32,000 nucleotides of DNA. Source: an uncultured archaeon (GTDB taxonomy: Archaea; Asgardarchaeota; Thorarchaeia; Thorarchaeales; Thorarchaeaceae). Position 1 is the first letter of the stretch. Every line of letters starts with the position of its first letter. Below the pieces are notes generated by a model that was not told where the DNA came from, made no database searches, and was given only the letters and a program-made list of their open reading frames with translations. Position numbers and translations under genes: made by a program. Shown piece after piece: positions 7,068-28,789 of the stretch. The stretch covers positions 88,440 to 120,439 of the forward strand of contig CAZYLT010000007.1 of NCBI GenBank assembly GCA_964648855.1. The letters are read 5' to 3'.

Positions 7068-8399
7068 TCACTTCAATTTGTGTTTCTCCACAAACTCCTT
7101 CAGTATATCTTCAAGATTTGGTCTGCCAATTTCTTGTAACTCGTATTGAATCCGAACATGAGGCTTTTTGATATCAATTAGACTTGCCAGATCAATAGGA
7201 GTTCCTATAACAACTGCATCAACATCAGCCTTGTTAATCGTTGTTTCAAGCTCATCCATTTGCTCTTTGCCATAACCCATTGCTGGAAGGACATCCTCAA
7301 GATGCTGGTATTTTTCGAAGGTGTCCTTAATACTCCCCACAGCAAAAGGTCGCGGATCAACAATCTTCGCACCTACCTTTCTTGCTGCAATGTATCCTGC
7401 GCCGTATGGCATCTCACCATGGGTGACGGTGGGACCATCTTCTACAACCAAGACCCTCTTTCCTCTAATCTTGCTGGCGTCTTCGATGATTAGTGGTGAT
7501 GCAGCATCAATGATAATTGCATCTGGATTGGCGTCCATGATGTTGTTGCGAACGAGTTCCACATTCTCGTAATCTGCAGTTTCTACTTTGTTTATGATGA
7601 CTACGTCAGCCAGTTTCAGGTTGGTTTCTCCCGGATAGTAAGATATCTCATGACCAGGCCTATGGGGATCAGCCAAAACAATCAGAAGGTCTGGCTTGTA
7701 GAATGGAAAATCATTATTACCTCCATCCCATGTGATTATCTCAGCCTCCTTTTCTGCCTCTGCTAGAATTTTTCCATAATCGACTCCGGCATAAAGAATG
7801 ACTCCCATGTTGATCATTGGCTCATACTCTTCTCTCTCTTCTATGGTACAATTGTACTTATCCAAATGAGAGAGTTCCTCGTATCGCTGAGATATTTGAG
7901 TTGTCAAATCTGGGTCATATGGCATGGGATGTCTAATATTGACAGGCTTAAGTCCCATATCCACAAGTATCTGATTTACTCTTCGTGACGTCTGACTCTT
8001 TCCACACCCAGTTCTAACAGCACATACCGCAATCAATGGCTTCTTGCTGTCGATCATGGTTGTATTTGTTCCCATGAGGCGAATATCGGCTCCAAGAGAG
8101 TTGACATCGGCTATCTTATGACCGACCGTTTCGTATGATAGATCTGAATATGCCAAGATACATTGTTCCACCCCATGCTTCTCAATCAGTTCAGGGAGGT
8201 CTTCTTCTGGATAGATTTTGATCCCATTGGGATAAAGCTTGCCAGACAATTCAGGCGGATACTTTCTATCGCCTATTCCTGGAATTTGCTCTGCTGTGAA
8301 TGCCACTACCTCGTAATCTTCATTATCACGGAAGAAAACATTGAAGTTATGAAAATCGCGACCAGCAGCACCCATTATGATGACTTTTGTTTTACTCAT
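7068..8399 (-). CDS. COG2403 P-loop protein (cyclic 2,3-diphosphoglycerate synthetase-like family); probable arginine synthetase ArcE type
   Basis: IIMGAAGRDFHNFN, AVRTGCGKSQTSR (P-loop), RHPMPY, EEREEYEP, WDGGNND, VEDGPT, LPAMGY. Start reassigned to ATG 8399 (GGTGGA SD). Confidence 0.85.
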   Translation of the reverse strand: MSKTKVIIMGAAGRDFHNFNVFFRDNEDYEVVAFTAEQIPGIGDRKYPPELSGKLYPNGIKIYPEEDLPELIEKHGVEQCILAYSDLSYETVGHKIADVNSLGADIRLMGTNTTMIDSKKPLIAVCAVRTGCGKSQTSRRVNQILVDMGLKPVNIRHPMPYDPDLTTQISQRYEELSHLDKYNCTIEEREEYEPMINMGVILYAGVDYGKILAEAEKEAEIITWDGGNNDFPFYKPDLLIVLADPHRPGHEISYYPGETNLKLADVVIINKVETADYENVELVRNNIMDANPDAIIIDAASPLIIEDASKIRGKRVLVVEDGPTVTHGEMPYGAGYIAARKVGAKIVDPRPFAVGSIKDTFEKYQHLEDVLPAMGYGKEQMDELETTINKADVDAVVIGTPIDLASLIDIKKPHVRIQYELQEIGRPNLEDILKEFVEKHKLK

Positions 8400-8534: not shown

Positions 8535-8590
8535 TTCGATAAATCGAACACTGGATTTTTCGAAAATGTTTCTTACTTCGAAAAATCGAC
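8535..8590. promoter_or_regulatory. Cluster of palindromic TCGA elements (candidate operator) in a divergent promoter
   Basis: TTCGATAAATCGAA (8535-8548), TTTTCGAAAA (8557-8566) and TTCGAAAAATCGAC (8577-8590). There is also an 11-bp perfect inverted repeat, GATTTTTCGAA (8554-8564) / TTCGAAAAATC (8577-8587). Confidence 0.55.
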
Positions 8591-8687
8591 ACATACAACA
8601 CAAACACCTAAATACAGGCTCAATAGAGATATCTAGATGACTTCTTGTGTGTTGGAAGTCTGATTCGGAACTGCGTGGGGTGCACTC

Positions 8688-9239
8688 TTGAAACTGGTTG
8701 AGCTTGCTCGCAAATCAATAGATTTGCTGAAGGAAAAAGGAGAGGACGGGATTAGAAGCGATATTCTGGCAGACGAGTTGGGTGTGGCAAAGAGGAGAGT
8801 CTACGACGTTATAGCAATCCTTACAGCTATGGAACGTGTAGATACCGATCGTCGCTACAATGGAACGACCGTCAGGTGGATCGACAAGTCCAAGAATTTT
8901 GTGAAGAAATCCGATTATGACTCCATTAAAGCTGAGTTAGAACGAGAACGGGAATCTCGCAAGAAAATTCAAGTTGAGCTTGCTAAAGCGAAAGAAACCC
9001 TCCGACGGACAAAATCTCGGCTACGAATGGATACAAAACCAGTCACTGCCAAGGGCAAAACTGAATTTGATACGTGCCAACTTAGAATTCGGTCTCTCTC
9101 TGGCAGAGGATTCAAGAAAGTTGCTGATTCCGGAGTTGAAGCTGTGATAGAGACCTATGAATCTGGTATGATTGTTGACCCATCCGAAGTTGAAACGAAT
9201 AGAAACGAGGCAATCCTGCGAAACATTCAGAAATTATGA
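8688..9239 (+). CDS. E2F/DP-like winged-helix transcription factor with coiled coil
   Basis: LVELARKSIDLL...DG...ILADELGVAKRRVYDVIAILTAM...VRWID reproduces the E2F/DP DNA-binding-domain pattern, including RRxYD (8793-8807). A heptad coiled coil and a beta-rich C-terminal domain follow. Confidence 0.8.
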   Translation: MKLVELARKSIDLLKEKGEDGIRSDILADELGVAKRRVYDVIAILTAMERVDTDRRYNGTTVRWIDKSKNFVKKSDYDSIKAELERERESRKKIQVELAKAKETLRRTKSRLRMDTKPVTAKGKTEFDTCQLRIRSLSGRGFKKVADSGVEAVIETYESGMIVDPSEVETNRNEAILRNIQKL

Positions 9240-9769: not shown

Positions 9770-10891
9770 TTGGAAGTTGCCTTTGTAGTCGATACAACCG
9801 GGTCAATGAAGGACGATATTAATGCCGTTCGCGATTCACTGTTTGATATCGTTGATTCAATCACTTCGCAGACTGAAGACCTGACAATAAGATTTGCAAT
9901 CGTATCATATAGGGATCACCCACCCCAAGACAAGACCTATGTGACTCGTATCTTTGACTTTACTGAAGATATCAAAAAGGTACACAGAGCCATCTCACAA
10001 CTTGACCCCTCGAAAGGTGGTGATACGCCTGAGGCAGTTGCAGATGCAATCCACGATGCCAGTATCGAATTATCTTGGTCACGCGATGCCTACAAAGCGC
10101 TTCTACTGGTGGGGGATGCACCACCTCATGGACGTGATTACAATTCTCTAGGGGATGATTACTTCCCCAAGGGATGCCCGAATGGTTATGACCCCAAAGA
10201 AGAGATGGTGGCTTTCAAGAAATCTCATAGAGAAATGGCGTTTGTTTTTGTCTGTGGATGTAATCCGCTTGTAGAATCCTCATTCAAGGATATTGCCTCA
10301 TCGGTCAAAGATGGTAAATACTACTCGTTGAGTCAGGCAGACGAGTTACCGGCAGCCATCTTGGAAATACTCAAAGGATTGGGCGACCTGATTGAGATTG
10401 ATCGCCGAGTCATGGCATACTACCAAGAAAGAGATGGCGTCTTTGACATAGGCACTGCAGCAAAAGAGTTGGACTTATCTCTTCGAGACCTGAAGATTTC
10501 GGTTTCAAGGTTAATGGAGCTACAGCTAATTTCTCGTTGGCCCAAAGGCAGACCATTGAATACTGACCTCTTGGGTGTGAAGGTGGAATTGGGTGATGTT
10601 CCTAATGCGCTTGTAGCGGGCAAGGGTTTCAGGTATTCTATGAAATTCGGTAATCCAAGTGTATCCACTGTTTCCGTAAGGACTGTAGCAACACTCGTGA
10701 CTGAAGATGGAGTCAGTGAAATGGCAAACGAGCAACATGAGATTGCTCCGCGCTCTAAACGGGAAATAAAAGTAGATCTAGTTCCAATGGTTCACAAGGC
10801 TGGCAAGGCAAACGTAAGGATTGAAGTGCTCTATGGGGCAGAAGTGATATCTAGCAGAATCTACAAAACCAGGATTTTTGAACACCCGTAG
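9770..10891 (+). CDS. vWA domain protein with intact MIDAS, followed by a wHTH and an Ig-like domain
   Basis: VAFVVDTTGSM, YRDHPPQD, GGDTPEAV, LVGDAPPHG (vWA); FDIGTAAKELDLSLRDLKISVSRLMELQLI (wHTH); beta-rich C-terminus VPNALVAGKGFRYSMKFGN. Confidence 0.85.
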   Translation: MEVAFVVDTTGSMKDDINAVRDSLFDIVDSITSQTEDLTIRFAIVSYRDHPPQDKTYVTRIFDFTEDIKKVHRAISQLDPSKGGDTPEAVADAIHDASIELSWSRDAYKALLLVGDAPPHGRDYNSLGDDYFPKGCPNGYDPKEEMVAFKKSHREMAFVFVCGCNPLVESSFKDIASSVKDGKYYSLSQADELPAAILEILKGLGDLIEIDRRVMAYYQERDGVFDIGTAAKELDLSLRDLKISVSRLMELQLISRWPKGRPLNTDLLGVKVELGDVPNALVAGKGFRYSMKFGNPSVSTVSVRTVATLVTEDGVSEMANEQHEIAPRSKREIKVDLVPMVHKAGKANVRIEVLYGAEVISSRIYKTRIFEHP

Positions 10892-16566: not shown

Positions 16567-17949
16567 TCAACTCTTCGGCTCTAGAGCATCAACCAAATCC
16601 TTCAAAGCATCGATATCCATTTCCCTGATTTGCTCTTCTGGTATATCTGCCAGCATTGCTGCTGGCATTAAAGATAAAATGGCTGCTTTCTCTCCACCAT
16701 ATTTCTCAACAAGCTCAGAATCCAAAGTCATTTCTTCTTTTGCGTCTGCAATCCCAAGAATATCCTTTGCCTTAGCAACGAGTTCAGTCGAGCCTTTAGC
16801 TCCCAAGCCATCGACCATTTCCTGTAATATTTCGGGGTCTGCAGCTGCAATCTTTTCAATAGTTTCAAATCCCGCTTCGATTAGGTTCGCTTCCAAGGCG
16901 GGTCCCACGCCTGAAATAACCTGCAAATTTCTTTTCCTTGTTTCTATCGTGTCGCGTGTTTCCTTTTGAGTAATTTCTTCTGGAATGGGCGCGCCGGATT
17001 CCGCTGATACGAGTGCTTCAAGTTCCTCCATTGAAAGGCCTTCTAGGGTGCCCTCTGGAAGCGAATCCTTTACTTCGTTTGGGATTTGATCTATAAGGTA
17101 GTCTCTTGTTGGGCCTTTTTTCTTTCTTCGGACTCTTTTTACTCTTCTAACTTTGACAGCTTTCTTCTTCTCTTTGGCTCTCTCATCTTCTGGAAATGAA
17201 GATACAAGAGAATCCACAAGTTCACGAGCACTCTTCGGATTTAGCCGAACTAAGTCCTCCTCTGGTAATGAACTTCTCATATGAGGAGGAAGCTCCAGCA
17301 ATATCTGTTCGACTGCTGGACTTAGTCCTGCGGGAAGTGTATCATCTCTCTCTTCAGTAACTTCAATCGGTGCTGGTTCCTTTATTAGAATCGGCTTTCC
17401 TTCTAATTTTTCTCGAATAATGGACTCGTCAATGGCGATATCGAAGTCCTCCTTACGCCATCGCAAGAATCTGTCTATTTGACTTGGACGCACCTCAATG
17501 CGCAGTAACAGATTTCTAACTTCTTCATCCGTCATTTCTGGAAAGTCATTTAGGATTGTATCTACTGTTTCTTCATCAACTCTGGCCCAGATGGGTCCAT
17601 TGACCAATTTAGAGAGGCCAGCCGCTGAATGCGATCGCACCCATGTGTTCTGGTCCTTCAGGGCACCCAACAATGCCGGAATAGACCTGGGTTGCTGAAA
17701 CCACGCTAGAGCCTGAGCAGCAGCAATGCGAACTTCTGCATCATCATCAGCTGACAAAATTTCTTCGACCTTAGGTACAATCTCCGGGTTCCCAAAATCG
17801 ATGGCAGCAAGTAAGGCTCTTTGTCTAACAACTTCTGAAGGATCAGAAAAAGCCTTGACAAGTTCTTTTTTGGTCCTGTTGTTCTCTCTGGCAAGTCTTC
17901 CGACTTCTTCCGTCTCGAACTCCAGTAGTAGCCTCCTCGTTTCAGACAA
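16567..17949 (-). CDS. HEAT-repeat protein with three helical LP-x-LPE repeats, a basic patch and a helix-hairpin-helix domain
   Basis: HEAT/PBS repeats (DPSEVVRQRA, DDDAEVRIAAAQAL, DQNTWVRSHSAAGL). HhH: LQVISGVGPALEANLIEAGFETIEKIAAAD...VDGLG. Confidence 0.82.
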   Translation of the reverse strand: MSETRRLLLEFETEEVGRLARENNRTKKELVKAFSDPSEVVRQRALLAAIDFGNPEIVPKVEEILSADDDAEVRIAAAQALAWFQQPRSIPALLGALKDQNTWVRSHSAAGLSKLVNGPIWARVDEETVDTILNDFPEMTDEEVRNLLLRIEVRPSQIDRFLRWRKEDFDIAIDESIIREKLEGKPILIKEPAPIEVTEERDDTLPAGLSPAVEQILLELPPHMRSSLPEEDLVRLNPKSARELVDSLVSSFPEDERAKEKKKAVKVRRVKRVRRKKKGPTRDYLIDQIPNEVKDSLPEGTLEGLSMEELEALVSAESGAPIPEEITQKETRDTIETRKRNLQVISGVGPALEANLIEAGFETIEKIAAADPEILQEMVDGLGAKGSTELVAKAKDILGIADAKEEMTLDSELVEKYGGEKAAILSLMPAAMLADIPEEQIREMDIDALKDLVDALEPKS

Positions 17950-18092
17950 GGGTCAATCTCTCCTGCTTATCAGGCAGACACACTCTGATATTCTTTACTC
18001 TAGTTACCCTTACAGACTGTGCGCACTCAAATTGAATCGGTTACTTAAATGAGTTGGCGCGACATATGCATCTTCCAACCGGATGAATTTTA

Positions 18093-18935
18093 TTGCATTT
18101 GAAAGCCCGAGAACAGGTGCTGAAGATGGTGGAAGATACTATAAGACGGTCACTAAGAGTTCTACTGTTCATAGCAATAATGTTCCTAATTGTCAGCCTT
18201 TCACCATTTGTTGTTCGGCCACTGCAAGGAACTGATCTGTATCCCATTGTTGGCTCTGTGGTTTTCTTTCTCACATTCTTCTTGCTCTACATAATCCCAC
18301 TATCCTTCGTAAAATGGGAAGGTGAAGATTCGCCTGGCTCTCTTGGTTTGAATATTGATGATGAAAAAATGCCCCTGCATTTGAGCGTCGGACTTGTATC
18401 TGGTGCTATAGCCGCGTTCTTCGTCGTATTTCAGGCAATAGCTTTCGGGGGCACACTTAGGCCGCTCTCTGAAATTGGCTCAGATCTTATCATGCAGCAA
18501 ATCATCATCACCGTTCCGACTGCTTTGCTAGAAGAACTCTGCTACCGCGGCTACCTCCTCAGCAGAATGGCCCAACTGGTAGGCAGAGGAATAGCCATTA
18601 TTGGGAGTTCAATAGTATTCTCTCTTCTTCACTTCAGCTGGTGGATTCCCCTAGGGTCTGTATCCTTGCTTTTGGTATTCCTATTTACTCTAAATATCGC
18701 CCTAGGAGGCGTAGTTCTAAGTGTGGGATATTTCCGCACTGGCAACAAACTTTGGTTACCTATTGGTTTCCACTTCTCATGGAATATGGTTGGATATATC
18801 ATGTTCCCGCAATTTCCGCTAGTGCCTGTTGACATGCCATATCTTTACCAGATAGAATGGGGCCTGACAACTATCCCTGGCTTTCTTATAGGATTGGTCA
18901 TGGTGCTTTTGCTAACAAGGAGCTCCGTAGAATGA
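18093..18935 (+). CDS. CPBP family (CAAX/Abi-like) intramembrane glutamic endopeptidase
   Basis: EELCYRG, FSLLH, and HFSWN motifs within a multi-TM protein. Confidence 0.9.
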   Translation: MHLKAREQVLKMVEDTIRRSLRVLLFIAIMFLIVSLSPFVVRPLQGTDLYPIVGSVVFFLTFFLLYIIPLSFVKWEGEDSPGSLGLNIDDEKMPLHLSVGLVSGAIAAFFVVFQAIAFGGTLRPLSEIGSDLIMQQIIITVPTALLEELCYRGYLLSRMAQLVGRGIAIIGSSIVFSLLHFSWWIPLGSVSLLLVFLFTLNIALGGVVLSVGYFRTGNKLWLPIGFHFSWNMVGYIMFPQFPLVPVDMPYLYQIEWGLTTIPGFLIGLVMVLLLTRSSVE

Positions 18936-28773: not shown

Positions 28774-28789
28774 TGTTCGATTTATCGAA
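28774..28789. promoter_or_regulatory. Copy of the TTCGA-N4-TCGAA palindrome upstream of oppC
   Basis: TGTTCGATTTATCGAA is the exact reverse complement of 8535-8550. Confidence 0.5.

Follow-up and report, generated by a model that had tools for sequence, protein, structure and literature searches.

Introduction

In eukaryotes, E2F/DP transcription factors drive entry into S phase. The typical E2Fs (E2F1-6), which combine a PF02319 winged helix with a PF16421 coiled coil–marked box (CC-MB), form heterodimers with DP proteins built of PF02319 and PF08781 (structures 1CF7, 2AZE, 5TUU and 5TUV). The atypical E2F7 and E2F8 carry two tandem winged helices in one chain (4YO2), need no DP partner and read one palindromic site with two E2F-type winged helices. 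The origin of this circuit is an open question to which homologues in Asgard archaea speak. Here we describe one of these homologues, a 183-aa E2F/DP-like protein encoded by a single-copy gene at positions 8688..9239 (+ strand) of a 32,000-nt stretch of DNA from an uncultured member of the Thorarchaeaceae (GenBank assembly GCA_964648855.1, contig CAZYLT010000007.1, positions 88,440 to 120,439; the whole stretch is called the window below). The genome is a Thorarchaeota metagenome-assembled genome (MAG) of 3.11 Mb that is 94.6 % complete.

Asgard E2F/DP homologues have been listed among the eukaryotic signature proteins (Eme et al. 2023, Nature 618:992, PMC10307638, Suppl. 4.1.5), where the corresponding table entry is 'E2F/DP homolog', arCOG02749. 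According to the same study (Eme et al. 2023, PMC10307638), the base-contact residues are conserved in these proteins, which are said to be without a dimerisation domain and to lack regulator-binding domains as well; the family was reported as absent from other archaeal lineages, and eukaryotic E2F and DP were proposed to derive from duplication of the Asgard homologue followed by fusion. Asgard E2F homologues are also mentioned in 'The Archaeal Cell Cycle' (PMC7617429), and a 2024 review restates their presence in Asgard genomes. A preliminary description of the window, made from its letters and open reading frames (ORFs), could not say whether the family had been listed before; it has, and any claim to novelty for the family lapses. 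The gene is an ordinary member of this known, published Asgard E2F/DP-like family, which combines PF02319 with the base-contact residues and occurs in most Asgard groups.

We read the protein as an E2F/DP-like factor of Thorarchaeota that acts as a homodimer on palindromic TTTSGCGCSAAA sites and controls a small DNA-precursor and replication regulon, a reading that we hold to be fairly probable. What this adds to the literature is a predicted self-pairing module, and conserved E2F-type sites at thyA, at an unnamed gene for a 253-aa protein and, in some genera, at MCM. Such sites are shown here, whereas the earlier study only anticipates similar motifs (Eme et al. 2023).

The N-terminal domain is an E2F/DP winged helix

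The Pfam family PF02319 (E2F_TDP) matches residues 3-65 of the protein (8694..8882, +) with 35.4 bits against a gathering cut-off of 25.7, and scores 38 bits in a search of the genome DNA. It matches 65 of 65 relatives with a best E-value of 2e-10, the best of any family. The recognition-helix motif RRVYD occupies residues 36-40 (8793..8807, +), and the wing tryptophan W64 (8877..8879, +) lies within VRWID at residues 62-66. R36, R37, Y39, D40 and W64 are invariant in the 65 relatives, including those from other Asgard classes that are only 23-33 % identical. The reading frame and the strings quoted in the preliminary description are all present exactly as given there, and its assignment of an E2F/DP winged helix with RRxYD and a conserved tryptophan is borne out by these results.

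Comparison of the family profile with all PDB sequences gave three winged-helix matches and no others: E2F8 (49.6 bits, 4.3e-12), E2F4 (33.1 bits, 4.9e-7) and DP2 (19.4 bits, 8e-3, aligned only over residues 34-57). The remaining PDB matches were weak (E >= 0.1) and fell on the coiled-coil part. Among 5.8 billion sequences, the long proteins matched were eukaryotic E2Fs only. A profile-profile comparison by hhalign against an alignment of fish E2F6 (winged helix plus CC-MB) scored 96.6 % with an E-value of 5e-10, the alignment spanning the winged helix and reaching the first turns of the coiled coil. These matches identify the N-terminal domain as an authentic E2F/DP winged helix, homologous to the eukaryotic DNA-binding domain.

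By the same measure, the winged helix scores nearer E2F than DP. Mixed E2F and DP features had been proposed for it, partly on the strength of an 'AM' pair after the recognition motif that resembles DP; this was an over-reading, as the pair is unconserved (the family consensus is VLKAL) and both E2F8 and E2F4 outscore DP2. No member of the family matched the DP family PF08781, and the extended winged helix of the DP type was not found.

When 185,579 prokaryote species, represented by one genome each, were scanned with back-translated patterns, 93 relatives were confirmed. All those with a named lineage are Asgard archaea (Thor, Hermod, Odin, Baldr, Hel, Loki/Promethearchaeota, Sif, Borr and Asgardarchaeum) and the remainder are unclassified archaeal MAGs; cluster look-ups extend the family to Jord/Frey, Ran, Heimdall and Hod. 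PF02319 is carried by 124 of the 301 genomes of the phylum and by 68 of the 76 genomes of the same family, and several large families have none. Relatives in Thorarchaeota are 43-95 % identical to the protein, the nearest being from Thorarchaeota MAGs (best TEKIR_14, at 91 %), and some relatives bear the NCBI name 'E2F family transcription factor'.

A conserved tail is predicted to pair two chains

The gene begins with TTG, a start to which 183-aa orthologues beginning MKLVEL lend support. An AlphaFold2 monomer model built on the 65 relatives (pLDDT 83.7) comprises the winged helix (residues 3-64), a single long helix (74-115; 8907..9032, +), four strands (133-164) and a short C-terminal helix (172-182; 9201..9233, +) that is found mainly in Thorarchaeota. 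The strands belong to a conserved beta domain at residues ~124-166 (9057..9185, +), and the protein ends 17 residues past it. A heptad-rich stretch covers residues 80-109. The coiled coil of ~35 aa announced in the preliminary description is thus present, but the helix that forms it is longer, at 42 aa. This layout and its conservation are far beyond chance.

In the homodimer prediction, the interface score ipSAE was 0.48 in all three runs and 0.00 in the best of three controls; among proteins of solved structure, 20 of 30 same-chain pairs and 1 of 23 single chains reach the mark applied. The runs agreed in at least 92 % of contacts, with a partner pLDDT of at least 78. The modelled coiled coil is parallel and in register, with same-residue contacts 77:77, 84:84, 98:98, 101:101 and 105:105 and a heptad series of contacts at 77, 80/81, 84, 87/88, 91, 94/95, 98, 101/102, 105, 108/109 and 112. 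The chains intertwine through their beta domains (119-166), and the winged helices touch through residues 2-11 (helix 1) and 40-50 (the end of the recognition helix). Such a pass speaks for likeness and plausibility rather than for binding. The protein probably pairs with itself via the coiled coil and the beta domain, as this model suggests. A DP paralogue that could serve as partner was not found, the 94.6 %-complete genome holding one PF02319 gene. The homodimer proposed earlier agrees both with the predicted parallel pair and with the gene content.

The beta domain is widespread in the family. Its hidden Markov model (HMM) matches nearly all Asgard E2F-like ORFs that we fetched, and the domain is kept across the Thor, Hermod, Odin, Baldr, Hel, Loki, Jord/Frey, Sif, Borr and Heimdall forms. 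Most Asgard lineages also have the coiled coil; forms of 119-133 aa, one of them from a Heimdallarchaeota cluster, have the beta domain and a short linker in its place. A Hodarchaeota-type group (f21, f12) carries a different tail. Because nearly all Asgard E2F-like ORFs have the beta domain, the winged helix and the beta domain are the conserved core of the Asgard family. In some Asgard lineages there are two PF02319 genes per genome, namely in a Hodarchaeota/Promethearchaeota-type group and in a group, of unnamed lineage, with 119-150-aa frames. One Hod-type paralogue has a different C-terminal domain, and paired PF02319 genes could be candidates for natural heterodimers.

Set beside the typical E2F/DP proteins, the archaeal protein has in common with them an RRxYD winged helix with, ~10-15 residues further on, a coiled coil predicted to be parallel, then a small beta domain that in the predicted dimer is shared by two chains, and a palindromic TTTSGCGCSAAA target, which here is putative. 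Unlike the E2F-DP heterodimer, it is predicted to be a homodimer of one 183-aa chain, from a single gene per genome, and its tail has no detectable sequence similarity to CC-MB or DP. It also differs from typical E2Fs in that no C-terminal region for transactivation or pocket-protein (Rb) binding was found, the chain ending so soon after the beta domain, and no cyclin-binding region or nuclear localisation signal either. Because there is neither a pocket-protein-binding tail nor a DP-like partner, its control must differ from the Rb-E2F circuit. With E2F7 and E2F8, the second of which is the best PDB match of the family profile, it would share the reading of one palindromic site by two E2F-type winged helices without a DP partner; they differ in having both domains in one chain, whereas here there is one domain and the pairing is predicted to go through the tail. 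The conserved coiled coil and beta domain, with their predicted homodimerisation, set our description apart from the published one and go against its statement that the Asgard proteins have no dimerisation domain (Eme et al. 2023).

E2F-type sites lie upstream of DNA-synthesis genes

Palindromic motifs of the TTTSGCGCSAAA type are what textbooks give as the E2F consensus; among the classical E2F targets are the genes for thymidylate synthase and MCM. We searched for such motifs by genome-wide pattern scans with control windows, and by comparing orthologous loci (n=30 per target gene). The 3.1-Mb genome has a single copy of the full palindrome TTTSGCGCSAAA, at C9:81409, 216 nt upstream of the 253-aa gene. 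The site is kept in 30/30 orthologous loci from 16 genera, ~170-270 nt upstream of the gene, in the forms TTTGGCGCCAAA, TTTCGCGCGAAA, TTTCGCGCCAAA or a close variant; of 256 control windows, 17 match even the much looser TSGCGCS. TTSGCGCS precedes thyA in 24/30 loci (9/411 control windows), where it lies at -93 to -181 and occurs in both orientations. For MCM, 13/30 loci have it upstream (6/383 control windows). Across the sites, the central GCGC is invariant and the S positions around it vary, in keeping with the E2F core.

A search of 46 Thorarchaeota-family genomes found the 253-aa protein (gene at 1498-2259 of locus L154, C9:80129-83884) in 43; it has no match in Pfam, NCBIfam or the PDB.

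Because the RRxYD contact residues are conserved and the motif is identical to the textbook one, we infer that these sites belong to the E2F/DP-like protein. Given the conserved sites at thyA, MCM and the 253-aa gene, the protein probably regulates a small regulon for DNA precursors and replication. In the mechanism that we propose, the winged helix with its base-contacting RRxYD motif would be the part that reads DNA, and the leucine-zipper-like helix and the small beta domain are predicted to hold two identical chains parallel. This would place two winged helices side by side, as in E2F and DP, and the homodimer would then read palindromic TTTSGCGCSAAA sites at the 253-aa gene, thyA and, in some genera, MCM. 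Should binding be confirmed, E2F would have been coupled to the transcription of DNA-synthesis genes before the nucleus, cyclins and Rb arose.

Some further observations concern these sites and genes. In this genome, a second GC-rich element, ATGCGCGCGAT, follows the E2F-type site of the 253-aa gene. An E2F-type half site, TTGGCGCG, lies in the window at 18054-18061 (+), 39 nt upstream of a gene for an Rce1-like CAAX protease (18093-18935) and 105 nt from a divergent HEAT/HhH gene (16567-17949). In six related genomes the MCM match is split over one very long frame (1214-2403 aa), which suggests intein insertions.

Alternative readings of the protein and its sites

A generic archaeal winged-helix regulator of the TrmB or MarR type, with RRxYD acquired by convergence, would give a different picture of the whole protein. 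JGI labels some relatives TrmB or GbsR/MarR, weak TrmB and HTH_11 matches occur among them, and whole-model fold searches bring up many generic winged helices; with the full-length model, Foldseek and VIA-align returned only these (RPC34, Z-alpha, MarR, SelB), a result that is uninformative on family. Yet TrmB matches 54 members, and more weakly (best E 5e-6) than E2F_TDP matches all of them, no TrmB or MarR chain of the PDB is matched by the family profile, and the species scan confirmed relatives only in Asgard archaea or unclassified archaeal MAGs. TrmB is also absent from the Pfam matches of this protein. A TrmB/MarR identity is largely refuted, and we regard it as very improbable; the best family match is E2F_TDP and RRxYD is invariant. 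The nature of the tail divides the evidence more evenly. That a beta-rich domain follows the coiled coil, as first described, holds, and the domain is conserved; its identification with the marked box failed in HMM and profile-profile tests. Scans of 60-65 members with a limit as loose as E <= 10 gave no match to PF16421 (E2F_CC-MB) or PF08781 (DP), and a C-terminal profile against PDB sequences, like Pfam on 60 tails, yielded coiled-coil noise only. Compared with E2F CC-MB by hhalign, the tail scored 0.45 % and the beta domain alone 0.08 %, although the E2F profile used was narrow (fish E2F6-type sequences only). In an ESM-Atlas fold search with the tail, the only hit above TM 0.5 with a sensible match was the family's own cluster. 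These results, and the other tail of the Hodarchaeota-type forms, favour the view that the coiled coil and beta domain are an independent archaeal dimerisation (or ligand- or partner-binding) domain unrelated to CC-MB, and that eukaryotes fused CC-MB later, as Eme et al. (2023) propose; we lean towards this view. Position, spacing and length nevertheless agree with CC-MB: the E2F module covers 96 model positions from a point ~15 residues past the winged helix, and the archaeal one covers ~91 residues from a point ~10 residues past W64. Language-model searches with residues 68-183, which exclude the winged helix, and with residues 114-183, which exclude the coiled coil too, placed E2F_CC-MB clusters at the top with scores of 0.75-0.79, below the trust level of the tool, and Foldseek gave a weak lead in the same direction. 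We give somewhat less than an even chance to homology between the tail and the eukaryotic marked box. The wider proposal, that coiled coil and beta domain are the ancestral coiled-coil/marked-box module and that a homodimeric Asgard E2F already bound TTTSGCGCSAAA at thyA and MCM, is tentative and on balance doubtful. If it were true, both the link of E2F to S-phase genes and the architecture of DNA-binding domain, coiled coil and marked box would predate eukaryotes, and E2F and DP would have arisen by duplication of a self-pairing ancestor, in contradiction to the published statement on dimerisation.

Several points weigh against a homodimer that reads these sites. The dimer is a prediction, and its pass may partly mirror the model's memory of E2F-DP structures. 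The thyA site of this genome is a variant, AAAATGGCGCGATTT, and the MCM site is absent in this genome and its genus. Across the genome, intergenic DNA shows no clear enrichment of the pattern TTTSSCGC (19 % against a baseline of 13.8 %), related patterns behave likewise, and other TTSGCGCS matches adjoin unrelated genes (succinate dehydrogenase, DUF302, inositol-1-phosphate synthase, MFS, PIN and Rce1-like protease). The link between protein and sites is drawn from conserved contact residues and a textbook consensus. The GCGC palindromes might be bound by another factor, or be RNA or terminator hairpins, and the E2F-like protein might have other targets. The site conserved in 30/30 loci, the best conserved of all, follows the stop codon of a co-directional glycosyltransferase gene by 15-70 nt, with the next start ~200 nt further on, and is an extended palindrome able to fold; a GCGC site that could serve autoregulation is absent from the factor's own promoter. 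Invariance of GCGC with variable S positions is, however, what an E2F core would show and a stem would not, and upstream of thyA and MCM the same core is non-palindromic and occurs in both orientations. The site also stays with the 253-aa gene where the upstream glycosyltransferase gene is missing or the neighbour differs. The motif remains the textbook E2F consensus, and the factor retains the RRxYD residues that would contact it. We find it unlikely that the palindromes belong to another factor or to hairpins, and prefer their assignment to the E2F/DP-like homodimer.

Neighbourhood and promoter of the gene

The gene lies in a conserved block. A divergent gene for a 443-aa P-loop-like protein (7068-8399, -), blank in Pfam and NCBIfam, is 77-94 % identical in 64/80 loci, and a convergent cyclophilin-like gene (PF04126; 9256-9651, -) is present in 74/80 loci, including Odin, Baldr, Hel and Loki; a vWA gene (9770-10891, +) also belongs to the block. 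These three neighbours yield no functional clue.

The promoter layout is conserved as well. A putative B recognition element (BRE)/TATA box, AACACAAACACCTAAATA (8597..8614, +), is conserved in orthologous promoters and would mark the promoter, and a nearly invariant Shine-Dalgarno-like GGGGTGC (8677..8683, +) stands 5 nt before the start codon. Between them, in the presumed 5' leader, lies an inverted repeat GACTTC-N10-GAAGTC (8639-8660, +); orthologues have a short stem of other sequence in the same place, for example GTGCTC-N4-GAGCA. For this leader, RNAalifold gave no consensus structure, and single-sequence folds reached a mean z of only -0.78, which is weak evidence.

An upstream box, TCGAAAAATCGA (8578..8589, +), has the consensus TCGnAAAATCG in Thorarchaeota orthologues, and a second copy, TCGATAAATCGA, lies at 8536-8547 (+), likewise upstream of the BRE/TATA box. 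The box TTCGAWAAATCGR occurs ~10 times in the 3.1-Mb genome. Two of these occurrences are the copies upstream of the BRE/TATA box of the E2F-like gene; others are at 28777-28788 (-) and at C20:34562, upstream of thyA and directly after its E2F-type site. The box may be a second regulatory element common to the promoters of the E2F-like gene and thyA.
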